Positions 12,111-63,586 of a stretch of 64,000 bases of DNA are shown here, one piece after another. This DNA comes from Candidatus Latescibacterota bacterium. GTDB lineage: Bacteria; Latescibacterota; UBA2968; UBA8231. Location of the stretch: assembly GCA_965217585.1 (NCBI GenBank), contig OZ244561.1, positions 192,001 through 256,000 on the forward strand. Direction: 5' to 3'. Below the pieces are notes generated by a model. The model was given only the letters and a program-made list of their open reading frames with translations, made no database searches and was not told where the DNA came from. Both the position numbers and the translations under genes were made by a program. Every line of letters begins with the position of its first letter. Position 1 is the first letter of the stretch.

Positions 12111-12151
12111 TTTTTAAAACTCGCGTCGGGTGTCAGGTGTCGAAGAATGGG

Positions 12152-39955: not shown

Positions 39956-40763
39956 TGTCGATATCGGTCAACAGCGGATGATAAGCTTCTCGATTCGCCG
40001 CGGGCAGGGACTCCTTCTCAAACCACCACGACCCACCCCGCAACACCCCGAACTCCCCGCGCAACGGCCCCTGCGGATTGTCCCGTGGACTCTCTGCATA
40101 GTAGGTGTCCCCGTACCAATCGGCCACCCACTCCCACACGTTGCCCGCCATGTCGTGTGCCCCGTACGGCGACACGCCGGCGGGACGGCTGCCTACCGGC
40201 TCGGTCGCTCCGGCGATAAAGCGAAAGTTGGCCTCGTCGCCTACCAGTTCGTATCCCCAGGGATAGGTGCGCCCGTCGGTGCCGCGCGCGGCCTTCTCCC
40301 ACTCGGCCTCGGTCGGCAGCCGCAGACCAGCCCACGCGCAATAGTCGAGCGCGTTTTGGCGGTTCACACAGTTGATGGGATGGGTGTCGTCGGCAAAGCC
40401 ATCGTAGTTGCAGCTAGGAGCGTAGGCCGGCTCTTCGCAGGCGTCGGCCTCCACGCAGCGCCGGTACCGTCCTACGGTGACCTCGAACTGGTCGATATAG
40501 TACGCGGAAAGAAAAACTTGATGCGGAGGCTGCTCGTCCGGGTCGCCCGCGTCCCAACCCATCACAAAGAGGCCTTCGGGCACGAGCACCATGGCGTGCT
40601 CGGCTTTGTTGACCTCGGTGACTGCGGTGGGAGGGTCGTCTTCGGTAGCGGGAGCCTCGCTAGGTGGGGTGGGAGCAACCACGCGATCTCCGCTCACTTG
40701 CCCCGGGTCCTTTTGGCCGCAACCAAGGGCCCACAGGGCCATGCACACCAGTGCGCGACTCAA
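39927..40763 (-). CDS. FGE-sulfatase (SUMF1/GldK-like) domain lipoprotein
   Basis: Lipobox LGC; FVMG, EVTVGRY, RLPTEAEWEKAARG, DMAGNVWEWV, RGGSW, GFRCA; no catalytic CxxxxC after RGGSW. Confidence 0.9.
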   Translation of the reverse strand: MSRALVCMALWALGCGQKDPGQVSGDRVVAPTPPSEAPATEDDPPTAVTEVNKAEHAMVLVPEGLFVMGWDAGDPDEQPPHQVFLSAYYIDQFEVTVGRYRRCVEADACEEPAYAPSCNYDGFADDTHPINCVNRQNALDYCAWAGLRLPTEAEWEKAARGTDGRTYPWGYELVGDEANFRFIAGATEPVGSRPAGVSPYGAHDMAGNVWEWVADWYGDTYYAESPRDNPQGPLRGEFGVLRGGSWWFEKESLPAANREAYHPLLTDIDIGFRCARDF

Positions 40764-42785: not shown

Positions 42786-44438
42786 TCAGTTCTGCACCGA
42801 GTCGTCGTCCAAATACCGCAGATGCTCTTCGTACACGTCAATCTGCTCGGCGTATTTTTGGCGCAAATCCCGCAGATAGCCGTTGAAGAACTCCCGCTCA
42901 GTGCGCTCCCGCACGTCCCGCACCACCGCATTCCGCACCTGCTCTATATCTAGGCCGTGATAAATCTCTGGGGATCTTTCGATAACCCTGAAGATCGAGT
43001 ACCCCCCCCTCGTTTGAATCGGCCCTTGGAGTTGGTTCAGCTCGGCGTTCATCACCGCGTTCATCCAAGCCTCTCCCAAAAAGGGAGCCTGTGATTGGGA
43101 AACGTACAGGAGGCCATCTTCGGCGTTGCGGCGTCGGCTGTGGGCACGGGCCAGCTCCGACCAATCGGCACCCGCCTCAATCTGAGCTGCGAACTGGCGC
43201 GCCTCGCTCGGGGTCTCGAGCAAGATTTCCTCTAATTGCGCGTGGGGGGGGCTGCGGAAGCGCTGCTTGTGCTCCTCGTAGAAGGCCCGCAGCTCGTCCT
43301 CCGTCGGCGCGGGAGCCTCCGCCAGGATCTGCTCGCGCAGTTTCATCAGCATCAGGTTGCCCAACGCCAATTCATGCGACCGCGCGAAAGCCTCGGTTTT
43401 ATCGAGGCCCTTGCGCCGGGCGTCGTGGGCCATGATGCGGGTGGGGAAGTGACTTTCAGATAGTTTCTCGTTGACCGCGGCGGCGCTGGCTTCCGGCCAC
43501 AGTCGGCCCGATGGCCGCACGGCTTCTAAGACCTCTGCCACGTCCATCTGAAAGCCCTCGAAAGCATAGACTGGGTGCTGGCGCTGGGCCTCGTCCAAAT
43601 CCGCATAGCGGATCGCGCCCTGTAAGACGCCGACCGCTAGATCCATGCCCTCGGCGTCAAAAACCGTGTCCAAATCCCACTTGAGGTGCCGCAGGTACGA
43701 TTCGCGCAGTTGCTTTTGCTGCTCGTCGCCGAGTGCCTTGCGGATGCCGTCCTCGACCTCGACCAATTCAGCGCGGCGATGCTCCACCACTTTGGCGATG
43801 ACGAATCCTCCGTGCAAGGGGAGCGGTTCGGTCACGCCGCCCACGGGCAGGGCGAAGACCGCTTGCGCCAAGTCGGGTGGGCTGTCGAAGGGCGAATAGG
43901 CCAACCGCCGAATCTCGCCGGTATTCATGCCGTAATAGGGGTCAGCGGCGAACTGACGACCTGCTTCCGCAAAGTCCTCACCCTGCGCCAAAAGCGCTTG
44001 CACCTGACGCGCCTGTTCCCGGCTGGGCACGAAAATCTCCATGGTGGTGACCTTTTCTCCCCACCCCGGCCGCGCGTAGGCTTTTTCGATGTCGTCCTCA
44101 GTCACCGCGACCTTGGCCGCGACGTTGCGCCGCAACATCGCGTCGGCGAGGGCCTTGGTTTCGCGCTTGGCGAGTTCGGCTAAGACCGCTTCGTCGCGCT
44201 GCAAACCCCGTTTGTTGGCCGCCAAAAGCAGCACTTGGCGGTCAATGAGCGTCTGCAAGTTGTCCCGGTGCTGCGCGCGCATGGCGGCCGTTTTGAGATT
44301 GGCCTCAAAGGTGCGCAGATCGGTCGCGGTAATCTCGACCTCTCCGACCTTAGCCAGCAGCGAGGCGTTGTCTGGCCGCTCATCGCCACAGCTAATGCAG
44401 GCCCCGACTAGCAGCCCGGCCAACAGCGGTTTGTGCAT
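42786..44438 (-). CDS. Parvulin-type peptidyl-prolyl isomerase/foldase lipoprotein (SurA/PrsA-like, two PPIase domains)
   Basis: Lipobox-like CISC; LAKVGEVEIT; GEDFAEAGRQF and GADWSELARAHS; GPIQTRGGYSIFRV. Confidence 0.8.
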   Translation of the reverse strand: MHKPLLAGLLVGACISCGDERPDNASLLAKVGEVEITATDLRTFEANLKTAAMRAQHRDNLQTLIDRQVLLLAANKRGLQRDEAVLAELAKRETKALADAMLRRNVAAKVAVTEDDIEKAYARPGWGEKVTTMEIFVPSREQARQVQALLAQGEDFAEAGRQFAADPYYGMNTGEIRRLAYSPFDSPPDLAQAVFALPVGGVTEPLPLHGGFVIAKVVEHRRAELVEVEDGIRKALGDEQQKQLRESYLRHLKWDLDTVFDAEGMDLAVGVLQGAIRYADLDEAQRQHPVYAFEGFQMDVAEVLEAVRPSGRLWPEASAAAVNEKLSESHFPTRIMAHDARRKGLDKTEAFARSHELALGNLMLMKLREQILAEAPAPTEDELRAFYEEHKQRFRSPPHAQLEEILLETPSEARQFAAQIEAGADWSELARAHSRRRNAEDGLLYVSQSQAPFLGEAWMNAVMNAELNQLQGPIQTRGGYSIFRVIERSPEIYHGLDIEQVRNAVVRDVRERTEREFFNGYLRDLRQKYAEQIDVYEEHLRYLDDDSVQN

Positions 44439-44525
44439 AAAAAGAGGAGCTAGACGGAAGGTCCAGCTCCTCGCAATGAGATATCCTGCCATGCGTACTA
44501 TCCAGATGCGGAGCAGCGCCGGGAC

Positions 44526-45324: not shown

Positions 45325-45744
45325 TCAATTGGTTGGTTCCTCGGTCTCAATGTCGATCTGTCCTACACCCGCCATGGTGGCCGATTCCATTGCGTCGATG
45401 ATATGGCCGTGCGCAGCATCGGCATCCGCAGTGATAATCAGCGTCGATGAGCCGGTGCGGACCTTTTCGCGCTCTAGCCAGCTCGTTAGCTGCCCCATGG
45501 CCACTAGCTGCCCGTTGATTTCGAGCTGGCCCTCGCTCGAAATGCGCAGATTCAGCTTCTTCTCTGCCTTGAGCTGGTCGTAGTGCACCGAGTCGGGCAG
45601 CTCAATCCTGAGCTGAGTGGCCTTGACGAAGACCGTGGTGGTCATAAAGAAGATCAGCAGCAAGAACACCGCGTCTATCATCGGCGTCAGGTTCAGTTCA
45701 AATTCGCCGGCTTTTTCGGCCAGCGACTGTCTCCGTTTAGCCAT
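45325..45744 (-). CDS. exbD: ExbD/TolR family protein (Asp retained)
   Basis: LNLTPMIDAVFLLLIFFMTTT; IITADADA.HG. Confidence 0.9.
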   Translation of the reverse strand: MAKRRQSLAEKAGEFELNLTPMIDAVFLLLIFFMTTTVFVKATQLRIELPDSVHYDQLKAEKKLNLRISSEGQLEINGQLVAMGQLTSWLEREKVRTGSSTLIITADADAAHGHIIDAMESATMAGVGQIDIETEEPTN

Positions 45745-45748
45745 GCCG

Positions 45749-46168
45749 CTATCCTTCTCCGCTCTTGGCGAAAGCAATGGCCTCAATGCCCTCGCCGCGG
45801 GCAATGTCCATCACCTGCACCACATAGGAGTGAGGCACTGAACGCGCGGACTCCAAGATCACGTTCTTGGTATTGTCGGCCTCGATGACTTGACGAATCT
45901 TTGCCGCCAATCTCGCCTTGTCCGTGACCTCGCCGTTGACTTGGATCGTCTGATCCGGGTCAATCACGATGTTCATGTCCTTGGTCGCTCTCGACTCACC
46001 CTCGCCGCCCGGCAGATCTACGCTCAGGCCCTTGGGATTGACGAAAGTGGTCGCCACCATGAAGAACACCAACAGCAAGAACATGCAGTTGATCAGCGGA
46101 GTCAGATCCGGGTTCTCCGAGGTTTTGAAGGCGCTTTTGCCGAATCCGCTCTGTCGTCTCTGCCGCAT
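45749..46168 (-). CDS. exbD: ExbD/TolR family protein (Asp->Asn in TM)
   Basis: PDLTPLINCMFLLLVFFMVATTF; VVQVMDIAR..G. Confidence 0.88.
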   Translation of the reverse strand: MRQRRQSGFGKSAFKTSENPDLTPLINCMFLLLVFFMVATTFVNPKGLSVDLPGGEGESRATKDMNIVIDPDQTIQVNGEVTDKARLAAKIRQVIEADNTKNVILESARSVPHSYVVQVMDIARGEGIEAIAFAKSGEG

Positions 46169-46186: not shown

Positions 46187-46861
46187 CTAACTGGCCTCCC
46201 GCTGGCTGGCCTGGAAGCGCACCAACAGGGTATTGGCGAAGGCGTGGCAGTACAGTTCCACGCTCTTGAAGACCTTTTCCGCGCGACCGGAGAGGTAGCG
46301 GTGGAAGACGATGGTCGGAATGGCGACGATGAGACCACTGGCCGTCGTAATCAGGGCCTCGGAGATGCCGCTGGCCACGGCCGCCGGATCGCCGGCCCCG
46401 GCGCGGGCAATCGCGTCAAAGGCGTTAATCATACCCATGATCGTGCCCAACAGCCCCATCAGCGGGGAGAGGACGCCAATCGTTCCAAGCGCGTTGAGCA
46501 AGCGGCCGAGATACATCTCGCCGGCCTCCTCAGTGGCCAAGATCAATTCCTGGCGCATGTCCTCTAGGTCCGTGCGATTTTCCAGCACTAAGGTGTCGTA
46601 GCGCTTGACCAAGGCGGCGAAGACGAAGTTGAGCACGCCGCTGCCCTGCCGGAATAGTTCGACGGCTCCGCCTTCGCCTTGGCTTCTGAGCACTTCTTCT
46701 GCCTCGTTGAGCTGCTGTTCGGCCTCCTGTTCGCCCGGGACCGTCAGTAGGCGCCACAGCCGTTCTATAATGATGGCTAGAGCGATCAGCAAGCAGAGCA
46801 ACAGGGGCCACATGATAGGCCCGCCTTTGAAAAATTGGTCCACTAAAAAATTTTGCTCCAT
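46187..46861 (-). CDS. exbB: MotA/TolQ/ExbB proton channel protein
   Basis: GGPIMWPL, PLMGLLGTIMGMINAF, GISEALITTASGL.VAIP. Confidence 0.93.
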   Translation of the reverse strand: MEQNFLVDQFFKGGPIMWPLLLCLLIALAIIIERLWRLLTVPGEQEAEQQLNEAEEVLRSQGEGGAVELFRQGSGVLNFVFAALVKRYDTLVLENRTDLEDMRQELILATEEAGEMYLGRLLNALGTIGVLSPLMGLLGTIMGMINAFDAIARAGAGDPAAVASGISEALITTASGLIVAIPTIVFHRYLSGRAEKVFKSVELYCHAFANTLLVRFQASQREAS

Positions 46862-50199: not shown

Positions 50200-53133
50200 C
50201 TAGAACCCGGCCACAATATCAAAGAAGAGGCGCGAGTTGTCGAAGCTATCGGAAGCGCGTGTGGCATCGTCGTACTCCCGGCTGGTTCTGATAAAGCCGA
50301 ACTGGGAGGCGAGACTATAGCCATAGTGATCTGAGCGGTTGCTCATCATCAGCACCAGCGTCCATTCCTTGAAGTTGTCGCTTTTATCTTTCCGGTCTAG
50401 ATAGGTGTGTCGCCAGAAAGGGAAGCCTTGGAAGCCCAGTTGCAGATTGGACTTGGCCGTCAGGTCGAAGCGGGTCCTGACGATCGGCGCGTAAATCGAG
50501 AACGAGCGAATACTGCCGTCGTCCGTGGCGTCTTCAAGTATACTAGAATACTCGCGCAAGAACAGGTGCTTGAACATCGGGCGAATGTTCAGGTTACCGG
50601 CGTTGATCGTATAGTCGAGCCGGTTGACCATCGCAAGGGTCGAGAGCACCCCAGCCTCCTGTTGAGTGCCGTCGTCGAACTCGTCTTCGGCTTGGCTATT
50701 GCGAATCCATTGGACACTGTTGATGACGTTGAGGTTGGAAAACTGCCTAAAGGTCGAGCTGATGAACAAGGTGTTGACTAAGCTATTGCGCATGTTCAGC
50801 GGATCGACATCCGGCGGGAAAACCTGGGAATTGAGATCCCGCGCCTCAATCATCGGACCTTTCAAGTGCGGGACGGGGCTAGGTATCCGCTGGGTAAAAC
50901 CCACGTCTTCCCAGACGTACACGTCGTCGCGAATGTCGTCTTTGACCTGCTTAATGTCCTCGTTGATGCGAATTTTTCCCAGATAGGGCGAGACGAAGTT
51001 GTGCTCGTAGCGGGCGTAGATGGCCTTGGCCTTGCTTCCGCCAGCCGGCTCCTTCATGGTATAATAGCCGACAGAAGCCCATTTGCCCCAACGCCCCAAG
51101 CCTTTCTTCGTGGCCACCAAGTGGGCCCCCCGGCGGTCCCGTGGGTATGGATAGTCGGGCAATGCGTCGTTTTCGCGGTAATCGACTACACCGTTGTTGT
51201 TGAAGTCAATGCCGTAGATGAAATCCGGCGGATCGGCGTCGTAAAAGAGGATCGGCTCGGTCCAGTCGGGAATGCCGTTGAAATTCTGGTCGCTGTCCGG
51301 GATTAGGTCGTTGTTTTCGTCCAAGCCGGGGAAAATGCCCGAATCCGACTTCTCCGCACTGGGCAGTTCGTTGATCATCTCGTCTGGCCACTGATCGTTG
51401 TCGTCATTATCGGTCATGACAAACATTTCCTGCATCTGTGGACACACAAAGCAATCGTCGCTGAAGAAGGCTACGCCGCCGCGGTCGCTGTCGTAGTTGC
51501 CACTGTAGTCCGGATCTAGGTTGAAAATTTCGCCACCTATCTCGATCGGGCCTACTTCCTTTTGGGCCGTGAGGAAATAACCGAGGGCCTGCTTGTCAAA
51601 GCGCTTGCCGGCATTGCTGCCCACTGGGAAGAGAAAGTACTGGGGATTGGCGACCAACTCGCCCTTTACTTTTAGCCCTTTGAGACTTAAGTCCCAGTCC
51701 AGCCCGTAGAGCACCTGACCGGTGGGGATGCCGTAGTCGAACTCGACCACCTTGCGGCCCGAGTCGCTGCCGTCGGCGCGCAGAACCATATAGCCTACCC
51801 GGGTCGGATCGAGCAGAGCCCACTTGTATTGCAAAAACGGCTGCGCCTGAGTGAATGTCGGATCCGGCACCACCGGCCAGTGATTGAAGGCGTCGGGATT
51901 TTCCGCTAGCACATCTTCGAGCGGTTTGATTGCGTCGTCGCCTTTCAGCCCGGTAAAAGGATTGACGTACTTGCTGCCGCCTGGAGCGTAGGTGTCGTCC
52001 CCGCCAGCCACTTTATCCACATTTTTGTCGTGGGCCCGCTGGTTGAAGAACAAGTGCTGTTGGCGCACCAAAATGCGATAGTCGCCCTCGACATCGGCCA
52101 AGAAGCGCACGAACTTCATCGTCAGCCCCGGCACAAAGTCGTCGGGATCTGCGGAGTACGCCGCGTCATCCGGGAGGTTGAATCGCGGCATTTGGAAGCG
52201 GAAGACCACTTGGTCGCCGCCGGCTACGATCAGCCCGCCCTCGGCTCCGCCGACGGGATCAATCATCTTCAGGCTCGAGTCGTACTCGGGATCGCCTTCA
52301 ATGCTGGTCAGGCGCACCCGCTGCCCCTGCGACTCGCCGATGATCACCACATCTACGTCATAGACCGTGGCCGCCCGGCCTATATCGTCGGGCGAATCGT
52401 CTTCGACGATGACTTCGATAAAAGAGGGCGGCAGCATGCTATAGGGGGTATCGCCCTTGAGGAAGGAGCCGTTCTCATCGGCAGTATTGGCCATGTGCTG
52501 ATTGAAGTACGTGGCACCCATGCGCAGCACATTGCCCAGCTTGGTCTCCCAGTGGCCACCAAAGATCAACACCGGCGAGGTCTCCCTAGTCGCTTTGAAG
52601 GTCGAAAACTTGGCGGCACCCAACATGTCGCCGCCTTGGCTCAGCATCAGGGTGAATCTGTTGTCCGAGGAAGCGCCGTCGAGCAAGATGCCATAGAAGC
52701 GCGGGTCGCTAAAGGTCAGATCTGAAAACTTAGCGCGGATGTCCTCGCCCAAGGTCACTCGGTAGTTCCAGCCCTTGTACGAGTCGTTGAGCATCACCAA
52801 GTTGGCGAACCATCCTAAGTACTGGGCCGTGCGAGTGTTGATATTACTTTCCCCAGGGCGGGAAAATTCCCAAGAGAAGACATTGAAACCGCGCGACAGA
52901 TAATTGCCTAAGCGGTCGTAGCGATTGCGTGCGTTGATCACCGAAGGATAGGGATCGTACTCCTTGCGCCCGTAGTTCAAATACGGTTCGGGATGGCCGA
53001 GGTTGAGAAAATCCCGGTTGCGCAGGAAGGTCTGCGCTTCGGCTTCGGCACCCAGCATACCCAACCCAACAAACGCTAGTAGCGCGGTCCTCACCAGGCT
53101 TTTTCTCGCATTACTCATGGCAGCTATCCTCAT
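50200..53133 (-). CDS. Hypothetical secreted ~980-aa protein, probable outer-membrane beta-barrel with acidic Ca-binding-like repeats
   Basis: Signal peptide AEA-Q; DNDDNDQWPD, DENNDLIPD, DFNNNGVVDYREND; amphipathic C-terminal strands ending ...LFFDIVAGF. Confidence 0.7.
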   Translation of the reverse strand: MRIAAMSNARKSLVRTALLAFVGLGMLGAEAEAQTFLRNRDFLNLGHPEPYLNYGRKEYDPYPSVINARNRYDRLGNYLSRGFNVFSWEFSRPGESNINTRTAQYLGWFANLVMLNDSYKGWNYRVTLGEDIRAKFSDLTFSDPRFYGILLDGASSDNRFTLMLSQGGDMLGAAKFSTFKATRETSPVLIFGGHWETKLGNVLRMGATYFNQHMANTADENGSFLKGDTPYSMLPPSFIEVIVEDDSPDDIGRAATVYDVDVVIIGESQGQRVRLTSIEGDPEYDSSLKMIDPVGGAEGGLIVAGGDQVVFRFQMPRFNLPDDAAYSADPDDFVPGLTMKFVRFLADVEGDYRILVRQQHLFFNQRAHDKNVDKVAGGDDTYAPGGSKYVNPFTGLKGDDAIKPLEDVLAENPDAFNHWPVVPDPTFTQAQPFLQYKWALLDPTRVGYMVLRADGSDSGRKVVEFDYGIPTGQVLYGLDWDLSLKGLKVKGELVANPQYFLFPVGSNAGKRFDKQALGYFLTAQKEVGPIEIGGEIFNLDPDYSGNYDSDRGGVAFFSDDCFVCPQMQEMFVMTDNDDNDQWPDEMINELPSAEKSDSGIFPGLDENNDLIPDSDQNFNGIPDWTEPILFYDADPPDFIYGIDFNNNGVVDYRENDALPDYPYPRDRRGAHLVATKKGLGRWGKWASVGYYTMKEPAGGSKAKAIYARYEHNFVSPYLGKIRINEDIKQVKDDIRDDVYVWEDVGFTQRIPSPVPHLKGPMIEARDLNSQVFPPDVDPLNMRNSLVNTLFISSTFRQFSNLNVINSVQWIRNSQAEDEFDDGTQQEAGVLSTLAMVNRLDYTINAGNLNIRPMFKHLFLREYSSILEDATDDGSIRSFSIYAPIVRTRFDLTAKSNLQLGFQGFPFWRHTYLDRKDKSDNFKEWTLVLMMSNRSDHYGYSLASQFGFIRTSREYDDATRASDSFDNSRLFFDIVAGF

Positions 53134-53169
53134 TCAGTGTAGAGATTCTGTCTTCAGTCGCATTCCAAC

Positions 53170-54030
53170 TCAGCGCTGGCGATAACCAACGCTGAACCGA
53201 TGTACACCTCCATAGCCGGAGAGGTGTAGCGGGTAGGAATAAGCATAATCGAAATGCCATTGCTTATAGTTGTGGCCAAGGCCCACGTTGAGCTCTCTAT
53301 CGTCAAAACCCGAACCAACCGCGGCTCCCCCCATGCGGAACCGGGCACCGTTGAGGCTCACCGTCCGCGTCTCGTACCCCACTCTGAACTTGGTTCGCCC
53401 ATCGCGGCGCTCAATGTCGAGCAGGACTTCCCGCCCTGCCAAGTTGAGCAAGGCGGCCGCGACCACGGCCGGCTTTTCTTTGCCTGCGGCTTGGCCACCC
53501 GCTGCGATATTGGCACCGTTTAAGCCTTTGGCGACCAAACCCAAGCGCAGGTACGCCCGCGGGTGTATGAAACCCACTTCCCAAGTGGCACCTACATCGA
53601 GGTGCCAAGCCCGGTGCGCTAGATCACCAGCTTTCCAAGCGCTGGTGCGCAAGCCGCCGCCTAAGGCGAATCGCTCGTGCAACGGCCGCCCGTAGCCCAA
53701 GGCAATCACTTCTTCGCGCCAGCCATCGGCACCGAGAAACGAAAGGCCCAGTTGCAAACCGCCGCCCCGCAAAGGGCCGGTTACCGACAAGCCGTTTAGG
53801 GCTGGACTTTGGTCCAACCCGGGATAGAGCAACGCGTGCGTCGTACCAGCCTGCCACTTTTGCTGCTGGGCGTTGCCAGCCGGATTGTACCAAACGGCCT
53901 CAGCCGTCTGAATACTGGCGGCGAAAGCCCCGCCCAACGCCGTGCTCTGGGCCCCCCGTCCCGCAAATTCAAAAGCAGCGCCGACTGGGGGGACAAAGGC
54001 CAGCAATAGGACGCTAGTACGCCACCACAA
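53170..54030 (-). CDS. PorV/PorQ-like (FadL superfamily) outer-membrane beta-barrel
   Basis: GAQSTALGGAFAA...AEAVWYNPAG N-terminal signature; FDYAY...GGVHRFSVGY C-terminus. Confidence 0.75.
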   Translation of the reverse strand: MWWRTSVLLLAFVPPVGAAFEFAGRGAQSTALGGAFAASIQTAEAVWYNPAGNAQQQKWQAGTTHALLYPGLDQSPALNGLSVTGPLRGGGLQLGLSFLGADGWREEVIALGYGRPLHERFALGGGLRTSAWKAGDLAHRAWHLDVGATWEVGFIHPRAYLRLGLVAKGLNGANIAAGGQAAGKEKPAVVAAALLNLAGREVLLDIERRDGRTKFRVGYETRTVSLNGARFRMGGAAVGSGFDDRELNVGLGHNYKQWHFDYAYSYPLHLSGYGGVHRFSVGYRQR

Positions 54031-55672
54031 AAGTGCCCCGGCGCGCCTTGCCGCTTTCTTCTATCATAACCTCGTACAGATAAAGCCCCGGCACGACAAC
54101 GCGACCGCTGCCATCGCGGCCGTCCCACTCGAACTGATAGGTGCGGGCGCTTCCGGTCTGCGCCAACTGGCGAATCGATCGACCGGTCAAGTTGTAAATT
54201 TTTAGCACGACTTCCCGGCCCGCTTCGATATTGCCGACGACGAAAGCAAAGCGCGCATGCTCGTCTGCAAACGGCGAGAACGGGCGCGGCTGCACCTGCA
54301 CTTCGCCCAAAAGCTGCAACGGCGTCCCCGCAGCCAGTACCGTCCAAGTGGCACCCGGCATTTCTCGCCCCTGCTGCCAGTTCACGTAGCCTTCTCTGTC
54401 GCCTTGGGCCTTGTTGCCAGCCTCAAATCGCATGGCGGTCTTGTCGCGCACAAAGAGCGCCTGTCCCTCAATTTCGACGGTCGCCATTGCGCTGATTTGC
54501 TCGCTAGGTGCAAGCTCTACCAGCATCCCCTCCCGATCCGGCGTCGGGCCCCAAGTGTAGCCCTCTGTAGGCACGAGTTCTCGACCATCGACGCGCACGG
54601 CTGTTACGCGGAGCAAGGGGCCTTGTACGCGCAAGAGATCCACTCCATAATCATCGACGCCAGCCGCGATCTCCACTCGGTAGATCAGCGTCGCTTCCTC
54701 GCCCTTGCGCAGCGAATCGGATACGGCTACCTCCGCCAAGAGCTGCTGGGCGACCAAGACTGGATCGTAGTCAATGGCAATGCGCTTGAGCACCGGACTG
54801 ACAAAGGGGGCCGAATTCGTCAGGCGGGCTCGGTACGCCAACCGCGCGACCGGCTCGTCTCCTCTGTAGAAGAATTCCCCGTCCGTGTGCGCCGCAACGC
54901 TTCCCCAAGGCTCCTCTGCTCCCTCTGCAGTGGCTCCGCGCACTTGCAGTTCAATGCCCGTGCGCTCCGCGCGCTCTACTTGCCAGCGGATCAGCCCTAC
55001 GTTGACTGGGGTAGGCGGGGTGAAGCTATCCTCTATGAAGCCTTCGCTAACGTAGCCCACGCCGAACACCTCGATTTCCCCGATGGCGACCCAGTTACTG
55101 CGGTCTTGGCGGATCAGTGTCAGCCGCACGAAGCGACCCTCGCGCGGGATCGCCTCACCGCGCTCGTCGGTTGCGGCCCAAGTAGAATCTGCGCTCGTAT
55201 CTACATTGAGGACGAAATTGTCCGGCTGTTCCGCCAAGAGATGCCAAACTTGCGGCGCCACTTGGGTGGCTGTTTCGAGCCTGTACCCACGCATGAAATA
55301 CTCGGGCTGGTTCAGCGCCGTCTCGCCAGCTAGCACTCGCACCCGCTTGATCGCCCGGTCCAGTCCGAGATCGACGGTAAACTGCTTGTCGAACACGTGA
55401 TTGGTGCCCGAGATCCACTCGCTCCGCACGAGGTCAATCGCGCCGTCGGTTAGAGGCACAGGCTTGTCGAAATCGTCTATCACCGATTGTCCCAAGGCCA
55501 CGTTTACATCCTCGTCCAACTGCGCCAGAATGACGAGGCTATCTGGATGCACCTGTACGCCTTGGGTCGTTCCCAAGGCGAATGTATCGACCGCGTCCAC
55601 CACCCAAGTCTTTAATTCAGCACGGCACGGACTGAATTCGAGCAATAGCAAAAGTGCGCCCAGCCCCAGCAC
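54014..55672 (-). CDS. Secreted discoidin (F5/8C)-like protein with C-terminal FlgD-Ig domain
   Basis: FTVDLG..RAIKRVRV, GRFVRL, IGEIEVFG; CTD PRPFSP...KIYNLTGRSIRQL...WDGRDGSGRVVVPGLYLY. Confidence 0.78.
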   Translation of the reverse strand: MLGLGALLLLLEFSPCRAELKTWVVDAVDTFALGTTQGVQVHPDSLVILAQLDEDVNVALGQSVIDDFDKPVPLTDGAIDLVRSEWISGTNHVFDKQFTVDLGLDRAIKRVRVLAGETALNQPEYFMRGYRLETATQVAPQVWHLLAEQPDNFVLNVDTSADSTWAATDERGEAIPREGRFVRLTLIRQDRSNWVAIGEIEVFGVGYVSEGFIEDSFTPPTPVNVGLIRWQVERAERTGIELQVRGATAEGAEEPWGSVAAHTDGEFFYRGDEPVARLAYRARLTNSAPFVSPVLKRIAIDYDPVLVAQQLLAEVAVSDSLRKGEEATLIYRVEIAAGVDDYGVDLLRVQGPLLRVTAVRVDGRELVPTEGYTWGPTPDREGMLVELAPSEQISAMATVEIEGQALFVRDKTAMRFEAGNKAQGDREGYVNWQQGREMPGATWTVLAAGTPLQLLGEVQVQPRPFSPFADEHARFAFVVGNIEAGREVVLKIYNLTGRSIRQLAQTGSARTYQFEWDGRDGSGRVVVPGLYLYEVMIEESGKARRGTFVVAY

Positions 55673-55673
55673 T

Positions 55674-56330
55674 TCAGAATAGCAGTTTCTGCGTCAGGCT
55701 GGTCACCACGGCGACGGCGAGGGCTTCCTCCAACTCCTTGGAGTTGAAGGTCATGACAATGCCGGCATCCACCGGGCTTTTCTTGCTCACTTTGCCAGTT
55801 TTGAGATCCTTGACTGAAACCTCGACCTGCACTCTTTGCGTTTGCGGGGAGAATATTTTGCGCACCCGCTGACTAGTAATCAGAGCCGTGCCGCTAATTT
55901 CCAAGTCGGCCTCGTCCGAGTCCTCTGACACCAGCGTGAAGGGATTGTTCACTTTCCGCACGCTATCTTCATCTAGCACTTCGACCCGATCCGTCTGCGT
56001 GAGGATCCGCACCTTGTCCTTGCGCAGTTCGCGCAACAAGGCCCCAGACAAATCCTCAATTCGCGAAGGCCGAGTAATCTGCACTAGGCGACTTCCCTCG
56101 CTGGCGAGGGCGTTAGTAATGTACTGGGTGCCTTGGCTACCGGACGAATTGGCCGTCCTCGGATCGACCACGTTGGCCTTGCTCTCGACCGGGAATTCTT
56201 TGACGTATATCTTGACCAGCATCGACGGCGGGTTGGGCAAACTGGTGTCCTTGAGTGCCTCGTATTTCAAAGTACAGGCCATCGAGCCGACGAGCAGCGC
56301 CACTCCGAGGTACTTCACCATCTCTTTCAT
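55674..56330 (-). CDS. Hypothetical lipoprotein
   Basis: Signal peptide with SMAC lipobox; abuts both neighbours. Confidence 0.7.
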   Translation of the reverse strand: MKEMVKYLGVALLVGSMACTLKYEALKDTSLPNPPSMLVKIYVKEFPVESKANVVDPRTANSSGSQGTQYITNALASEGSRLVQITRPSRIEDLSGALLRELRKDKVRILTQTDRVEVLDEDSVRKVNNPFTLVSEDSDEADLEISGTALITSQRVRKIFSPQTQRVQVEVSVKDLKTGKVSKKSPVDAGIVMTFNSKELEEALAVAVVTSLTQKLLF

Positions 56331-57107
56331 TTACTTATTCTCCACCCAACGCACTCCGTGATCGACATTGAAGTGGAATTTCAAGTCGGTAAATTCCACT
56401 GGATTGCCGTATCCTACTTGAAAGCGATCAAAGGCCAGAATGAAGTCATTTACTTCGAGGGTGAACGACTTGGTTTCTGCAGGCAGCGGTGGGAAGGTCA
56501 ACTTGCCGACATATCTGGAGCCTTTGCGCACAGGCTTTTCTCGGTGGTACGCGCTCTTGTTCCAGATTGGGCCGCGATCCAAGCTGGCGTGATAGCGCAC
56601 ATTGCCTTCTTGTCCCCCCCACTTCAGGTAGGAATAGTCGTAGAACTCATCCTTGTCGTACCAATTCCCCGCCCCTTGGCCACAGAGCAAGCGGCTACCG
56701 TCGTCCAAGCGCAAAATGGTCTGCGTAGGATCTAGCTCCACCCGCTTCCGGGTGCGGTTGCTCACCGTCACTTCAAAAACGGTCCACAAGGGCGGCGTAT
56801 AGTCCAAGCCGGGGATTTCGACTCCAGTGAGCGTATAGGGCGTGAAGCGGACGTCGTATTCGGCGTCGAGCATGGCATCGTCGTAGAACTTGACCTTGAC
56901 TTGCACCCCTTGCTCGCTCCACACGACCGAACTATCGATTGGATCGATGTAATAGGTCTCTCCATCGGGCAGGACCGGCTCCAGCTCGATAAAGTACTCC
57001 TGCGAATGCGATTCGAGGGATCTGAGGGTAGCACACCCCCCGGCGGCCAACGCCAAGCACAGGAGGACGCGAATGTGTTTTGCGATGAGTCTCATGTGTA
57101 TTCGCAT
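56331..57107 (-). CDS. Hypothetical lipoprotein, paralog of 44526-45293
   Basis: AGGC lipobox; YYIDPIDSS, YTPPLWTVFEV, FILAFD. Confidence 0.75.
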   Translation of the reverse strand: MRIHMRLIAKHIRVLLCLALAAGGCATLRSLESHSQEYFIELEPVLPDGETYYIDPIDSSVVWSEQGVQVKVKFYDDAMLDAEYDVRFTPYTLTGVEIPGLDYTPPLWTVFEVTVSNRTRKRVELDPTQTILRLDDGSRLLCGQGAGNWYDKDEFYDYSYLKWGGQEGNVRYHASLDRGPIWNKSAYHREKPVRKGSRYVGKLTFPPLPAETKSFTLEVNDFILAFDRFQVGYGNPVEFTDLKFHFNVDHGVRWVENK

Positions 57108-57109
57108 CC

Positions 57110-60079
57110 TTAGAAGGGTGATATCAGCTCCACGAAGAGGATGCCCTGCTTGGCGTCGGGCCGCCCTGCATGGCTAAAGTCCCGCCGCGTGCGCTGGTAG
57201 CCGAAGAATATCGAATTGTCGCGGATGCCAAAGTAGTCTGCGGTAATGCTCAACATGGCCAGATAATCGGTCTGACTGTACGTCTCGTCCTCATAGGCGC
57301 GATCCCAGTGCTTAAACGGCAGCAAGGGTAGCCCTTGTATGCCTAGCTGGAAGCTAGTCTTGGGCGTGAGCTTGTACCGCCCCATTACGATGGGAATGAA
57401 GTCGCTGTACGATTTCCTCGGCGCATCTTCGCTGTCAACCTGCTCAAAGATCGTCCGATGCTTTAACTTAGGCGTGACGCTGAAGGCACCCCAGCTATGG
57501 GTGTAGTCGATCTTGTTGACAATGGAAAAACGCGAGCGCACGTCTTCGGGCTGCAACAGCCCGCTGCCGTCTTCGAACTCAATTTCGGCTTGGCTGTTTC
57601 GCTGCCACAGGAAGCCGTTTTCAATGTTGAAGCCGCGGAAGCCCTGATAAGTGCTGTCAAAAAAGAGGAGATGCACAAAGCTGTCGCGCATCAACAACTC
57701 GTCCGGCGTCGCCGGCCGCCAAAAGCCCGCGTGCTCGGGCGGGCCGTCCGGCTCGTTAAACCAGTTGATGACCGCGACATCGTCAATGGGCACTCGGTAC
57801 ACGTAGGTGTGATCCGGGATGTCGTCTTTGACCTGCTTGGCGTCGTAGTTAATCTTCAATGCGCCGACGCCGCGCTTTTCCATCTCATAGGCGTAGCGGA
57901 AGTACAGCGCCTCAGACTTACCAGGGCCGGCAATCTGACTATTGTCGTAGCGGCCTAGGGTGATGAACTTGCCCAAGCGCCCCAAGCGGTCGTAGCGGAT
58001 GAAGATGTGCTGGCCCTTTTGGTCGCGTGGGTAGGGGTAGTCCGGCTCATCGTCGTTCTCGCGGAAGTCGGGCACATTGTTGTTGTTAAAGTCGATGCCA
58101 TAGACAAACTCGGGCGACTCCGAATCGTAGGTTAGAAAAGCCTCTTCCCAGTCCACAATAAAGTTCTCATTGCGATCCATATCTGGGATGTTATCGACGT
58201 TCTCGTCGAGTCCGGGGTACACTTGGGCACTGGGATTGCCTGGATATAGCGAACGCGGCTCGGCTATGGCCGTATCGTCGCTGTGGCTGTCGGGTAAGGT
58301 GTCGTGATCGTCGTTGTCTTCGTGGAGAGGGTACTCCTCGGTGACCGTAGAGATTCTCTCGCCGGGAGCAGGCTGCCCATCGTAGTGAAAAGCCATGCCG
58401 CCTCGGTAACTGTCGTACCCACCGCCGTAGTCGGGATCCATGCGGTATATCTCGCCGCCCAGTGCTAGACCACCGGCTAGATCCTTGACGCCCTTGACCC
58501 ACCACGCAAAGGCGCGTTCACTGCTGCGCTCGCCCTCGTTATTGCCGATTGGGAACATGAAATTTTGCAAGTTGTGCGCCACTTCGCCGCTGATATCTAG
58601 CCCTATCAAATCGACCTGATAGTTGACCGAGGCCAAACTCTGCCCAGTGGGAATGCCGTAGTCAAAGGAGATCATCCGCCGGTTGGCACCAATGCCGTCG
58701 CTGCCATCAGCGCGGACCACCGTGTAATAAATCTCCTCGTCTTCGTCTGTGTACCATTTGAACGGACGCCGGATGGCCCGCTCGTTACCCTTGGTAATGG
58801 GAGCTGGCCAAGCCGACTCGGTAATCGTCGCGTCGCCCCGACGACTTATACTGAAGAAGTCGTGGGTCTGGCTAACGCCGACCCGGTAGTCGCCGGCCAC
58901 ATCGGCAACAAAGCGCACCGAGCGCACCGTCACGTCCGGCGGGAGGACGAAGGTGTACACCACCAGCACCTTGCCCTCGGCCTCGCGCCCACCGCCAGCG
59001 TGGACGGCACCGCCCTCGGGTGGCCCAGCTTCTAGCAGGGGGTCGTAGTCCGGGTCGTCGTCGAGGCTGGTCAGGCGCACCGGCTCTGCGTTGCGCGCAC
59101 CCTCAAGGACGATGTCCACGCCATAGACAATAGCATTGGCCCGGGCATCGTCGGGCGAGTCGTCGGCCACGAAGACGCGGATGGTCTTGGGGCCGAGCAT
59201 CTCATAGGGCAAATCGCCGCGCCAAGCACTGGAGCGCGACAGGGCCGGCGCAGCCATGATCTGGTTGATTAGCGTTCCGCCAACGCTGGCGAAGCTACTT
59301 ATTTCGTGCTGGTAGTGGCCGCCAAAGAGTATTACCGGTGAGTTGTCCCAAGCGTCGTCGCCTTCTTGGCCGAACGCCCATTTGGAGAATAGCTGGGCAC
59401 CGGAGTGATCGCCGCCGCGCGAGTAGAGCAGAGTCGCCCGGTCGCGCTCCTTGTAGTTGATGTCCATGCGCAGCACATTCAGCTTGCTGTTGACCAAGGT
59501 AAGCGGCGTGAAGATCGTACGCACATCCGTACTACCGCCTGGTGAGCCCACGTTGCCCACCGTGGCGGTCCAGTGCAAATCCTTGTGAGTATAGTGGCCG
59601 ACCTGGAACCTCCGATACTTGTGGTCGATATAGCTATACCCACTAAAGTCGTTGCCACTGCGCGACTCTTCTATCGTCAGGAGCCGATGATAGCCGCCGC
59701 CCATGTAGTTGCCCATCCGGTCCCAACCCACATTGCGGGTCCTTGGCGAGCGGCCCGACGGGGTGGCCCAAGCAACCGTCTCGCGGTAGTACGCAATGTA
59801 CTTTTCGTCGGCGTAGTTGAGATAGGGGACGCTAACTGCGGCGTTGAGAAAAGCCCTCCCTAGCCCTCGGTCATAGCGGTCTTGGGGACCGCGCAGAAAG
59901 GGAGGGCGCTTTTTCCACGGGGGATCCTGCGGCGTGCCGGGAGCGGGGTTGTAATAGGGCCGCGCGCCGCTGGATTCGGGGTGGCGCTGCGCTTCCGCTG
60001 GTGCGGACAGGCCAGTGCAAACCAGCGCGGACAAGACCACCCAACGTTTAACAACACAGCATTTTAGAAAGTACAGCAT
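57110..60079 (-). CDS. Hypothetical secreted ~990-aa protein, paralog of 50200-53133 (probable outer-membrane barrel)
   Basis: Signal peptide AEA-Q; shared SPV..FGGH, DDSPDD, FDYGIPTGQ, GGEI..DPDY, PGLDEN, GIDFNNN..D.REND..PDYPYPRD; ends ...LFVELISPF. Confidence 0.7.
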   Translation of the reverse strand: MLYFLKCCVVKRWVVLSALVCTGLSAPAEAQRHPESSGARPYYNPAPGTPQDPPWKKRPPFLRGPQDRYDRGLGRAFLNAAVSVPYLNYADEKYIAYYRETVAWATPSGRSPRTRNVGWDRMGNYMGGGYHRLLTIEESRSGNDFSGYSYIDHKYRRFQVGHYTHKDLHWTATVGNVGSPGGSTDVRTIFTPLTLVNSKLNVLRMDINYKERDRATLLYSRGGDHSGAQLFSKWAFGQEGDDAWDNSPVILFGGHYQHEISSFASVGGTLINQIMAAPALSRSSAWRGDLPYEMLGPKTIRVFVADDSPDDARANAIVYGVDIVLEGARNAEPVRLTSLDDDPDYDPLLEAGPPEGGAVHAGGGREAEGKVLVVYTFVLPPDVTVRSVRFVADVAGDYRVGVSQTHDFFSISRRGDATITESAWPAPITKGNERAIRRPFKWYTDEDEEIYYTVVRADGSDGIGANRRMISFDYGIPTGQSLASVNYQVDLIGLDISGEVAHNLQNFMFPIGNNEGERSSERAFAWWVKGVKDLAGGLALGGEIYRMDPDYGGGYDSYRGGMAFHYDGQPAPGERISTVTEEYPLHEDNDDHDTLPDSHSDDTAIAEPRSLYPGNPSAQVYPGLDENVDNIPDMDRNENFIVDWEEAFLTYDSESPEFVYGIDFNNNNVPDFRENDDEPDYPYPRDQKGQHIFIRYDRLGRLGKFITLGRYDNSQIAGPGKSEALYFRYAYEMEKRGVGALKINYDAKQVKDDIPDHTYVYRVPIDDVAVINWFNEPDGPPEHAGFWRPATPDELLMRDSFVHLLFFDSTYQGFRGFNIENGFLWQRNSQAEIEFEDGSGLLQPEDVRSRFSIVNKIDYTHSWGAFSVTPKLKHRTIFEQVDSEDAPRKSYSDFIPIVMGRYKLTPKTSFQLGIQGLPLLPFKHWDRAYEDETYSQTDYLAMLSITADYFGIRDNSIFFGYQRTRRDFSHAGRPDAKQGILFVELISPF

Positions 60080-61361: not shown

Positions 61362-62396
61362 GTGAAATGTCTCCTCCTCATTGGATTGGCCTCCCTCGTA
61401 CTCGGCGGCCAGCCGGCTAACGCCCAGCCGCACATCTACACCATCGGCTTGGTCTTTACCGATCTCGTCGATCAAGAGATCCTGCCCGTCCACCTCGCCG
61501 AGCAACATCCCCGCCTGATGCGAGAAATCGAGCGAGCGATCAGAGACATCTTTGCTGACTTGGGCCGCTTTCGCGCCGTGCGCTTGCAGAGCATCCGCGA
61601 GGGCCACGATCCCATGTATCAAGGGGAAGAATCCATCGATTACATCGCCCACTTCATTCTCAACAAAGCCTATAAAACATACCACAACCAAGTTATTCAT
61701 TACTACGAAAATTTGGGCCTATTAGACGATGGAGGACCAAGCGAAGACCGGTCTTACACGGTGATTTCACTGCCCGCCATCGTCGGTCAACTCGAAGTCA
61801 AGTTGGTGGATCTGCACCGAGACAAAATTTTCTGGTCGGACTTGCGCGACTCATCAGCCGTGATACCTTATGACAAACAGCTATTCCTTTATAATACTTG
61901 GAAGTATCCGGGCGCGTCGCATCCTGGTTTGACGCGCGCTTTCCTAGCTGATCTTCTCCGCTTACAAATGGCCGATTCCGCCACAGAACGCGCATTGAAC
62001 GTCGCTGAGCGTTGGTTCGTCTCCAAGCCCAGTAGCGACCTCGCCGTTGCCCGAGGAGTATTAAAGGGGCTGGCGGACAATCTAGCGCCCGACCTAGACG
62101 CGAATTTGCCGCTAGAGGGCCGCATCGTAGCCCTCTTGCCCGAGCAGAAAGGCAAACCCCACGTCCGGCTAAACATCGGTACTCAGCACGGGCTGGTGAA
62201 GCGAATGCGGTTCGATGTGTGGCGGCCTAGGCCATCGCAGCAGAAAGTGGGGCAAATAGAGGTGGTTGACGTGGATTCCACCACGGCCATCGCTCGGCTG
62301 CGAAAACTCGACAAGAAGCTCAAAAAACGCGGAGATGGCCTGCAAGTCCAAGACCGGATCATCTCCCCAAAACGCCCTTCGAGGAGGTCGTTATGA
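61362..62396 (+). CDS. Secreted hypothetical protein with FlgT-C-like C-terminal domain
   Basis: Signal peptide ANA-Q; VRLNIG.QHGL....RFDV....VGQIEVVDV. Confidence 0.55.
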   Translation: MKCLLLIGLASLVLGGQPANAQPHIYTIGLVFTDLVDQEILPVHLAEQHPRLMREIERAIRDIFADLGRFRAVRLQSIREGHDPMYQGEESIDYIAHFILNKAYKTYHNQVIHYYENLGLLDDGGPSEDRSYTVISLPAIVGQLEVKLVDLHRDKIFWSDLRDSSAVIPYDKQLFLYNTWKYPGASHPGLTRAFLADLLRLQMADSATERALNVAERWFVSKPSSDLAVARGVLKGLADNLAPDLDANLPLEGRIVALLPEQKGKPHVRLNIGTQHGLVKRMRFDVWRPRPSQQKVGQIEVVDVDSTTAIARLRKLDKKLKKRGDGLQVQDRIISPKRPSRRSL

Positions 62397-63586
62397 GTAA
62401 GAAATGGGTCTCCACGCGCTTTGCTTCGCCCACTCAGGACTTCGATCTCGACATTCTGGCCCGCCGCCTGCGCCGGGGCTTTTTTATCGCCCTAGCCTCT
62501 GCTGCGGCCCTCCTGCTCATCGTCGTTGCAATCAATCCCTTGCAAGAGGACGAGAAGAAGGCACCCCGGCCCCTGACGACCAAGTTCATCAAGCGCGAGC
62601 CGCGCCTGACCAAGCCGCTGGAGCTGCGCAAAATTCCCCAGCCCAAGCGTCAACTCGCGCGCCGCGAAGTCCAGCTAGCGCAAGCGCGTATGGATCAAGT
62701 ACAAGCCACGGCCTCGTTCAACACCCGCAGTCTAATCGCCGGTGTCAGTGGTTCGGGGATTCGCCTGTCAGGGCAATCTACCTTCAGCACGATGAGCGGT
62801 ACGACCATAGAGCCTAAGCTGACGGCAGCGGCCGTGACCAGTACCCGCACCTCCGAGCACAAAATCGACATGGGGCTAGAGATGCTCGACGTCAACAACA
62901 TGGACACCGGTCGCTACCGCGCCATTATCGTTCAAGACGCCACGGACAAGCAGGCCATCAAGGGCTTTGTCAAGTTTGCCCAAGTCATATCCTCGCGGGC
63001 ATTGGCCGGTAACTCTGGACTCAATGTCAAAATCATTGATCGGCTGCGCGATGTGGTCAACGAATACACAGGCCTCAAGGCCGAATTCCTTGGCCGTGTC
63101 ACGTTCGACGACCCGAGCCTGATGGAAGTACCCATCATCATACCGTATGGCGGGCCCAACGAAACCGAAATGGCCAACCTAGCCCAGTACCTAATGTCGG
63201 GTGGTTTTACGTTCGGCGGGCTCCACGGCGAAGCACTGGAAAAGTACGGCGGTCTAGTCCAAGGCAAGGACTTCTGGTCCGAGCGCCTGCCAGAGGATCA
63301 CCCCGTCTATACTACCTTCTTCGACCTAGGCGGGGGCATGCCTTTCGGCTATCCTCCCTCGATGGGGCAGGGCAAGTTGGGCATCAGACCCTGGAATTAT
63401 CTGAGGGGCCATTACATCAAAGGCAGGCTGGCGAGCGTCACGCCCGGCGACGGCGGCTGGGGCTGGGAAAACGAGGTGATGGGAGGGGACTCGACGCGCC
63501 AGCTACAACTGGCGGTCAATATCATCATCTACGCCCTGACTCAGGAAGGGTCAATTACCCAACGCCTCATGCAGATGGTCAACTAG
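62393..63586 (+). CDS. DUF4159-domain protein with TonB-like N-terminal TM and Lys/Pro-rich linker
   Basis: Single TM followed by KAPRPLTTKFIKREPRLTKPLELRKIPQPK; NLAQYLMSGGF, LPEDHPVY..FFD, VNIIIYALTQEGS. Confidence 0.7.
   Translation: MSKKWVSTRFASPTQDFDLDILARRLRRGFFIALASAAALLLIVVAINPLQEDEKKAPRPLTTKFIKREPRLTKPLELRKIPQPKRQLARREVQLAQARMDQVQATASFNTRSLIAGVSGSGIRLSGQSTFSTMSGTTIEPKLTAAAVTSTRTSEHKIDMGLEMLDVNNMDTGRYRAIIVQDATDKQAIKGFVKFAQVISSRALAGNSGLNVKIIDRLRDVVNEYTGLKAEFLGRVTFDDPSLMEVPIIIPYGGPNETEMANLAQYLMSGGFTFGGLHGEALEKYGGLVQGKDFWSERLPEDHPVYTTFFDLGGGMPFGYPPSMGQGKLGIRPWNYLRGHYIKGRLASVTPGDGGWGWENEVMGGDSTRQLQLAVNIIIYALTQEGSITQRLMQMVN

Follow-up and report, generated by a model that had tools for sequence, protein, structure and literature searches.

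The 64,000-nt stretch of DNA analyzed here (hereafter called the window) comprises positions 192,001 to 256,000 of contig OZ244561.1 in the assembly GCA_965217585.1 of a Candidatus Latescibacterota bacterium. On its reverse strand, it contains two genes, P0001 (50200-53133, -) and P0002 (57110-60079, -), which encode proteins of 977 and 989 amino-acid residues (aa), respectively, and which, with the four further genes between them within 50200-60079, are part of an operon of 13 genes. BLASTP aligned the two proteins over their full length with 351 of 995 positions identical (35%) and an E-value of 3e-160, a likeness far above chance. They are, therefore, paralogs, as was proposed in an initial annotation made from the DNA sequence alone, which described a ~980-aa pair with colinear motifs. 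Each protein contains all 12 of these motifs, in a shared order, although the spacer in the motif GGEI..DPDY is three residues long rather than two. The N-termini of both proteins, judged by eye, look like Sec-type signals ending in AEA/Q, in agreement with the initial annotation. The true start of P0001 is probably Met6, since its homologs are 5 aa shorter. Both proteins indeed end in a phenylalanine, but this is not a family trait, as it is found in just eight of the 77 full-length paralogs encoded in the same genome, where other C-terminal residues include E (23), L (9), Q (9), and D (9). The feature that the C-termini of the paralogs have in common is a conserved F970...A975-G976-[F/L] strand, which in many of them is followed by a short tail.

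For P0001, AlphaFold2 modeling from an 88-member alignment reached a mean predicted local distance difference test score (pLDDT) of 87.8 and a predicted TM-score (pTM) of 0.86. Long antiparallel strands and β-hairpins make up most of the model, with only ~75 residues ahead of the first long strand and no long helices. Among the PDB matches listed by Foldseek for this model, all are outer-membrane barrels, with MtrB (E 3.6e-9) and SlpA (E 1.1e-8) at the top, followed by LptD, many TonB-dependent transporters (TBDTs), ushers, and porins. The TM-scores are low (0.11-0.34, and not above 0.31 among the large barrels), and, therefore, P0001 has no close solved relative. Counting on the DSSP string, with an even number assumed, gave ~30 strands, and when parity is counted back from the C-terminal strand, the periplasmic-side turns in the C-terminal half are all 2-7 residues long. 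Neither P0001 nor P0002 has a Pfam match even at E <= 10, or an NCBIfam match, and searches of PDB sequences with the single protein and with the 88-member profile yielded spurious matches only (E 1.2 and 0.13). Together, the β-structured model, the exclusively barrel-type Foldseek matches, and the empty Pfam, NCBIfam, and PDB-sequence searches support the earlier proposal of a family of large outer-membrane barrels that is not covered by a curated model; the model and Foldseek gave no sign of a soluble or non-barrel fold, and the sequence searches gave no full-length match to a characterized family.

Several known identities were considered. No Plug or TonB_dep_Rec match was found in P0001 or P0002, consistent with the remark in the initial annotation that no plug was recognizable; the Plug model does detect 25 ordinary Plug proteins elsewhere in the genome. 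An hhalign comparison of the 77 paralogs with 24 TBDTs of the same genome gave a probability of 0.43% (E 0.14). Because of this low probability and the absence of a Plug domain (PF07715), the family does not consist of TBDTs; the TM-scores of the Foldseek matches to TBDTs, which have 22-strand barrels, were 0.11-0.31. Identity with SprA was rejected as well, since P0001 and P0002 do not match TIGR04189 of NCBIfam and a separate SprA gene is located at C1:3679708-3685083. Neither are they PorV-, PorP-, or SprF-type barrels, as matches to PorV_fam, PorP_SprF, and T9SS_PorP_fam were absent. The SlpA_C domain (PF21620) scored 22.7 and 25.1 bits in two homologs, below the cut-off of 35 bits, and it gave four matches of 15.6-20 bits in the genome under study, all within genes of the family and covering SlpA_C positions 194-308. 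The Pfam scans of P0001 and P0002 showed no SLH domain, and there is no coiled coil.

Large inserts are a feature of each barrel, and the best conserved of them, an acidic one, is also the most conserved part of the family. Residues 540-666 of P0001 include 25 D, 7 E, and 12 N vs. 1 K and 3 R. A pattern for EF-hand loops, D.[DNS].[DNS]...[DE]..[DEQ] (12 residues with ligands at positions 1, 3, 5, 9, and 12), matches P0001 at residues 605, 615, and 643 and P0002 at 635 and 663. The ligand positions of the loops are conserved in 72-77 of the 77 paralogs: D575, D578, D605, D643, N647, D651, E654, and D656 are invariant, and N617, N619, D623, and E626 are found in 76. By tally, 33 of the 76 positions that are conserved in at least 70 paralogs fall within residues 573-669, and this segment is the conserved core of the barrel family. 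The initial annotation had pointed to a resemblance with Ca2+ sites of the thrombospondin type-3 or EF-hand type. At the sequence level, this idea is supported, since the loops match the EF-hand consensus and hardly vary among the paralogs, but Pfam does not back it: no EF-hand, TSP3, or dockerin model was listed for the barrels at E <= 10, a threshold at which the HMMER filters drop most weak matches. Most likely, the loops bind Ca2+. Strand parity, counted from the C-terminal strand on the premise that the end of this strand has to be periplasmic, predicts that the acidic segment sits on the extracellular side of the barrel.

A phmmer search of 1.84 billion cluster representatives with P0002 retrieved 361 sequences at E <= 1e-3, of which 229 remained with the limit set to 1e-10 and 116 with the limit set to 1e-30. 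All named members of the family are called "hypothetical protein" and stem from metagenome-assembled genomes (MAGs) of Latescibacteria or Latescibacterota, Gemmatimonadota, and Handelsmanbacteria; the nearest clusters in the ESM Atlas are unnamed as well. When the homolog search was repeated with the family profile, the same 71 proteins were recovered, without any further taxa. In a sample of the phylum, 71 of 121 genomes contain a match at E <= 1e-20; the family was found in 40 of 40 genomes of the taxonomic family to which the window belongs and in 0 of 29 and 0 of 13 genomes of two families of the same class. A literature search, which did not extend to supplementary gene tables, found no paper describing the barrel family, on DUF6785, or on Latescibacter* in combination with a type IX secretion system (T9SS).

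The genome of the window consists of one contig of 7.32 Mb. The family profile produced 81 matches in it, corresponding to 77 full-length genes and two genes that are each split in two. The split genes, at C1:869724-872665 (701+262 aa) and C1:7213572-7215964 (680+127 aa), are probably frameshifted or decaying copies. The ~79 genes of ~2.7 kb, which by simple arithmetic occupy ~3% of the 7.3-Mb genome, are distributed over 51 loci, i.e., 29 with a single gene, 15 with two, six with three, and one with four. In a FastTree phylogeny, they form a superclade I of 25 genes (support 1.0) and a superclade II of 52 genes, and P0001 and P0002 are sisters within superclade I (support 0.858). The first, second, and third genes of the tandem sets each form a monophyletic clade of their own (support 0.81-1.0). 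Thus, the pairs and triples of barrel genes were duplicated as units. Such position-specific clades, and the conservation of the pairing in another genus (see below), would be compatible with barrels that function together, without proving contact between them. The heterodimer and the role as a translocon or receptor suggested in the initial annotation are, at this stage, hypotheses.

The operon runs, on the reverse strand, in the order P0255, P0002, P0251, P0252, P0254, P0253, P0001, P0003, exbB, two exbD genes, P0250, and a parvulin gene; all coordinates of its genes given here refer to the - strand. The first gene, P0255 (60227-61186), encodes a secreted CBM9-like protein of 319 aa (CBM9_1, E 1.1e-8, 35.7 bits vs. 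23.4), and an ortholog with 47% identity occupies the same place in G055, a genome of a different genus, where the ortholog of P0002 shows 48% identity. Its C-terminal SWGRVK tail resembles, by eye, that of a family of ~315-aa proteins, called C3, encoded near other barrel genes. Downstream of P0002, P0251 (56331-57107) encodes a lipoprotein of 258 aa belonging to a family called C8, and P0252 (55674-56330) encodes another lipoprotein of 218 aa with 51% identity to its G055 ortholog. In both cases, the lipobox, with its Cys in P0251, was recognized by eye; P0251 has no Pfam or NCBIfam match, and P0252 has no family match either.

P0254 (54014-55672) is a lectin-like surface protein of 552 aa, of the family called C0, with CBM32/discoidin, Ig-like, and T9SS-type C-terminal domains. 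It matches FlgD_ig (E 7.5e-7) and CHU_C in Pfam, and some of its orthologs contain PF00754. Its AlphaFold2 model (pLDDT 88.9) is matched in Foldseek by CBM32 modules (TMt 0.76-0.78), Ig-like adhesin repeats, and the C-terminal domain of PorU, and no catalytic fold is found among the matches. As the genome contains SprA, PorU, and PorV above cut-off, secretion of P0254 via a T9SS is plausible; a first look yielded 259 candidates for a tail like the C-terminal domain of PorU in this genome. P0253 (53170-54030) is a small barrel of 286 aa that weakly resembles PorV, PorQ, and PorP (PorV_fam, E 1.5e-11, 44.5 bits, below the cut-off of 90; PorP_SprF of Pfam, E 0.027) and whose position is kept in G055 and in G015, a genome from a different family of the phylum.

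P0001 is followed by P0003 (46910-50182), a protein of 1090 aa with a hydrophobic N-terminus that matches many tetratricopeptide repeat (TPR) families of Pfam. In NCBIfam, it shows YbgF-, BamD-, and PorW-like partial matches: the small repeat models tol_pal_ybgF and OM_YfiO score above cut-off via repeated stretches, whilst the full-length BamD, PorW/SprE, and CpoB models remain below it. Orthologs at the same position show 58% identity in G055 and 26% in G015. Next come an ExbB/TolQ-type proton channel (46187-46861; MotA_ExbB, E 7.7e-29, with the TolQ/ExbB models of NCBIfam below cut-off) and two ExbD/TolR paralogs at 45749-46168 and 45325-45804 (Pfam ExbD, E 7.2e-26 and 2.4e-28, respectively). 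The second of these, which overlaps the first as listed, probably starts later, as its ortholog in G055 does not overlap its neighbor. P0250 (44526-45293) encodes a second C8 lipoprotein of 255 aa, which falls in the same BLAST cluster as P0251 and is 37% identical to it. A role for these two C8 lipoproteins as TonB was rejected, considering their lipoboxes and the absence of a transmembrane anchor and of TonB_C. The last gene (42786-44492) encodes a periplasmic double-parvulin protein of 568 aa, PpiC/SurA-like and of the family called C4, with Rotamase_2, Rotamase, and Rotamase_3 matches.

Upstream and divergent from the operon lies a gene (62393-63586, +) for a 397-aa DUF4159 protein (E 1.2e-8), a member of a family of ~420-aa proteins (C20) that is represented at eight loci of the barrel family, mostly of the type found in the window. 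Immediately downstream of the operon, a gene at 39927-40763 (-) encodes a protein of 278 aa with an FGE-sulfatase domain (E 4.8e-54). Since PorK/GldK also have such a domain, this protein could be of the T9SS type or of the sulfatase-maturation type.

All 13 genes of the operon are collinear in G055, with identities of 41-73%, and the parvulin gene is the last collinear one. In G015, the order is lectin, PorV-like barrel, three large barrels, TPR protein, ExbB, ExbD, ExbD, and lipoprotein. In three MAGs, orthologs of the lectin and of P0001 are encoded two locus tags apart. Within the genome of the window, an exbB gene is found at a distance of <=30 kb at six of 11 superclade-I loci vs. three of 40 superclade-II loci. 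Four sister loci of superclade I encode a longer C8 lipoprotein with a C-terminal, TonB_C-like AgmX/PglI domain (53-66 bits vs. a cut-off of 40), and these four account for all but one of the five such domains in the genome. The fifth protein with such a tail (51.9 bits; C1:1299127-1299345, -) adjoins a Plug-domain transporter at 1298343-1298708 and may be the TonB-like partner of a classical TBDT.

In a survey of the neighbors of the barrel genes, open reading frames (ORFs) within 10 kb of the family loci were clustered, and the genome was searched again with hidden Markov models (HMMs) derived from the clusters. Against a baseline of 17.4% of the genome lying within this distance, the share of genes found there was 88% for C8 lipoproteins (22 of 25), 80% for the ~315-aa proteins with an SWGRIK tail (40 of 50), 72% for parvulins (36 of 50), 58% for the lectin family (155 of 268), and 46% for DUF6785/DUF6784 membrane proteins (36 of 78); since the seeds of the clusters were themselves ORFs from the vicinity of the family, these shares are biased somewhat upward. 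The lectins form one family, in which 138 of 148 members are linked at E < 1e-40 and >=75% coverage. Lectin-family genes with CHU_C/FlgD_ig tails are present at 50 of the 51 barrel loci, and for 60 of them, the distance to a barrel gene on the same strand is at most 300 bp. Sulfatase genes are not enriched near the family (8 of 53, or 15%), and the idea of a sulfatase-rich polysaccharide utilization locus was rejected for this reason. The likeness of the DUF6785 proteins to OPT transporters (ESM Atlas, 0.76-0.78) is a weak lead. Apart from the barrels, the genome shows a very strong expansion of the lectin, DUF6785, double-parvulin, and SWGRIK-tail families. The labels of other neighbors, i.e., oxidoreductase, enolase-like, and PhyH-like, were assigned by eye. 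An FG-GAP/ASPIC-UnbV protein (G000:C1:1901883-1903751, +) was grouped with the TPR proteins in cluster C2 by single linkage; as this cluster is mixed, its counts are not counts of TPR proteins.

In the remainder of the window, an ORF for a protein of 4079 aa at 12176-24415 (-) encodes nine fn3 domains, many LRR, and Calx-beta and cadherin domains, ending in a weak FlgD_ig tail (E 5e-4), and the protein is probably a giant T9SS-type surface adhesin. The bin at 12001-14000 shows an extreme AT skew of -0.638. Further on, a 1564-aa protein with Peptidase_M28 and FtsX permease domains is encoded at 26080-30774 (-), near a DUF6785+DUF6784 membrane protein (34866-36770, -).

It is well supported that P0001 and P0002 are giant barrels with Ca-type loops and form the outer-membrane module of a conserved operon linked to a motor. 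With respect to their function, we tentatively favor a Ca2+-stabilized, motor-coupled, gated channel for the capture and uptake of a ligand, an explanation that appears plausible even if it stands slightly short of being the probable one. According to this proposal, both proteins would be exported by Sec and presumably inserted by the β-barrel assembly machinery (BAM), and the insert of ~125 residues, with three to four EF-hand-type loops (DxNxNGxxDxxE), would be held rigid by Ca2+ over or inside the pore. P0001 and P0002 may act together as the gated channel, possibly in a hetero-oligomer with the two lipoproteins. The lectin with its CBM32 module, delivered to the surface by the T9SS, and the CBM9-like protein would capture a glycan-type ligand. 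The ExbB-ExbD-ExbD proton motor would work on the barrels, its force being passed on via the 1090-aa TPR protein and/or a C8 lipoprotein, so that the gate opens and the ligand enters the periplasm. Such a gate would follow the uptake logic of TonB and SusCD with other parts, as there is neither a plug nor a TonB in the operon. The presence of ~79 barrels at 51 loci with genes for lectins, parvulins, C8 lipoproteins, and DUF6785 proteins clustering near them suggests an uptake-like diversification. Perhaps, although this is doubtful, the lineage as a whole uses an alternative to SusCD/TonB capture, in which a cassette of a T9SS-secreted lectin and a giant Ca-gated barrel is present ~50 times per genome and one subclass is driven by ExbB-ExbD2 via the giant TPR protein and a lipoprotein.

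Several observations weigh against an energized importer. Whether the barrel closes, how many strands it has, how wide its pore is, and where the insert sits were judged from the DSSP string and strand parity, without coordinates. No TonB-box-like motif could be defined in the conserved Y/N-rich motifs at the N-termini of the paralogs, and the Pfam and NCBIfam scans showed no TonB_C/AgmX-type domain in the operon of the window. No DUF6785 gene is part of this operon either, the nearest one being that at 34866-36770. Most barrel loci, i.e., those of superclade II, lack a motor in their vicinity. Near the family, there is no enrichment of catabolic genes, as discussed above for the sulfatases, and the seeding of the neighbor clusters inflates the other shares. 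Substrate, direction of transport, and energy coupling go beyond what the data show, and the list of parts would, by analogy, match the Agl-Glt machine about as well as an importer.

The latter analogy leads to an explanation that we consider unlikely, namely a mechanical machine like Glt or Nfs. In such a machine, ExbB and the two ExbD proteins would push, via the giant TPR protein, on a platform of barrels and lipoproteins that holds and moves, or unmasks, a surface adhesin or lectin, and would serve adhesion, gliding, or the remodeling of the surface rather than transport. The combination of one ExbB with two distinct ExbD proteins, a 1090-aa TPR protein, two or three paralogous barrels, lipoproteins, and a lectin parallels Agl-Glt, and the AgmX/PglI tail at the four sister loci, which is above cut-off, is of the GltG/GltJ type. 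However, this tail is missing from the operon of the window, and elsewhere it is present on a lipoprotein rather than on a GltG/J-like protein with a transmembrane anchor. NCBIfam scans of the barrels, the TPR protein, ExbB, and ExbD gave no family named Glt or Agl, with the Glt models in this library being unverified, and no genes for a cytoplasmic platform were seen. The barrels, with ~950 aa, are unlike the porin-like Glt barrels, which are about one third the size of P0001 and P0002. Moreover, ~79 barrels and 268 lectins per genome suit a diversification of specificity better than a single motility apparatus.

It appears rather improbable that the barrels form a platform on which T9SS cargo is docked or anchored, with the lectins being exported via SprA and then held on a cognate giant barrel, as in PorP/SprF, and with the Ca loops acting as a dockerin-like site. 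The close association of lectin and barrel genes described above, both within the genome and in the three MAGs, would fit such a role, as would the PorV/PorP-like small barrel between lectin and barrel, which is found here as well as in G055 and G015, and the agreement of the loops with the EF-hand/dockerin-type consensus. Yet, PorU and PorV are already present in the genome for the general attachment of cargo, 113 of the 268 genes of the lectin family have no barrel gene nearby, and the big barrels have no homology to PorP, PorV, or SprA in Pfam or NCBIfam. An anchoring role would also leave the ~30-strand barrel, the link to ExbBD and the TPR protein, and the parvulin unexplained. Prediction of a complex between residues 68-977 of P0001 and the C-terminal domain of the lectin (residues 465-552 of P0254) scored 0.00 in both runs, which were made without control pairs and weigh neither for nor against docking. 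Least likely is a SlpA-type barrel with a passive role, structural or porin-like, i.e., an abundant, Ca-stabilized scaffold or diffusion pore without energy coupling and with loosely related neighbors, because, although SlpA of Deinococcus radiodurans has 30 strands in its barrel and Asp metal sites that fix the insertions in its pore (PMC9388160), is matched in Foldseek with an E-value of ~1e-8, and gives faint SlpA_C signals that, in this genome, are confined to family genes, the TM-scores for SlpA are just 0.17-0.23, all SlpA_C matches are sub-threshold, an SLH domain and a coiled coil are absent, and the tight, deeply conserved motor operon and the 79 diversified copies are unlike a single abundant scaffold.

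The current understanding of energized outer-membrane transport is based on plug-containing TonB-dependent barrels, and other large outer-membrane assemblies linked to a motor are few, i.e., Tol-Pal, Agl-Glt, and the T9SS. Here, one barrel clade is tied to an ExbB/ExbD motor, with no TonB or plug, across genera and families of a phylum, and the operon looks like an envelope machine that has not been described before. Bacteria of the Latescibacterota type have been predicted to be polymer degraders, and in the sections of the 2015 analysis of Latescibacteria drawn on here, crossing of the outer membrane was predicted to occur via non-specific porins and Plug proteins only (PMC4454575). If the operon imports a ligand, it would represent a second solution to the SusCD problem and account for substrate uptake in these bacteria, and a motor-driven cassette of lectin and giant Ca-gated barrel would be a new mechanism of energized outer-membrane transport. 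If it holds or moves surface lectins instead, Glt-like mechanics would extend beyond the myxobacteria. In either case, the invariant Ca-loop insert offers an obvious starting point for structural studies and mutagenesis.

Among the known systems, LptD-LptE and MtrB-MtrA, for which the idea of a plug and a barrel is familiar, are similar in that their 26-strand barrels are among the top Foldseek matches and a lipoprotein gene lies directly downstream of a barrel gene here. They differ in that the TM-scores are not above 0.31, sequence similarity is absent, and the C8 lipoprotein has no assignment to a known fold. With SlpA (PDB 8AE1, 7ZGX), the family shares a very large single-chain outer-membrane barrel, with ~30 strands counted here, and pore-associated insertions with Asp-based metal sites, which are putative here, but it lacks the SLH domain and the coiled-coil stalk and is present in massive copy numbers in cassettes with lectins and motors. 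The arrangement also resembles that of type-B cargo of the T9SS, as genes for cargo with CHU_C/type-B-like tails adjoin an outer-membrane barrel gene many times per genome; the cargo/barrel pair in this comparison is SprB-SprF. In contrast to PorP/SprF, the partner here is a barrel of ~950 aa without homology to PorP or PorV, and only P0253 is weakly PorV/PorP-like.

The resemblance to the Agl-Glt/Nfs machinery of Myxococcus includes a TolQ-like channel gene and two different TolR-like genes in series, an arrangement kept in G055 and G015, as well as a periplasmic TPR protein of ~1100 aa, paralogous barrels, outer-membrane lipoproteins, and a surface adhesin or lectin. In the part of the Agl-Glt literature cited here, GltA, GltB, and GltH are outer-membrane barrels, of which GltA and GltB are mutually dependent, the lipoprotein GltK is located on the outer face of GltA/GltB, CglB acts as the adhesin, the TPR proteins are GltC, GltD, and GltE, and, in the motor, AglR5 is combined with two TolR-like proteins that differ from each other and form a heterodimer (PMC11761067). 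The differences are that the GltG/GltJ-type AgmX/PglI tail is not found at the locus in the window, though it is at four sister loci, that the counterpart of the adhesin is a T9SS-secreted lectin rather than a VWA lipoprotein, and that a single genome contains the system many times over. Like the TBDTs and SusCD systems, for which these traits are generally known, the family comprises outer-membrane barrels of ~1000 aa with dozens of paralogs, carbohydrate-binding neighbors at the cell surface, and, in superclade I, ExbB and ExbD. It differs from them in having no Plug or TonB_dep_Rec domain, a larger barrel, no TonB in the operon, and binding proteins that carry T9SS tails instead of being SusD-type lipoproteins.

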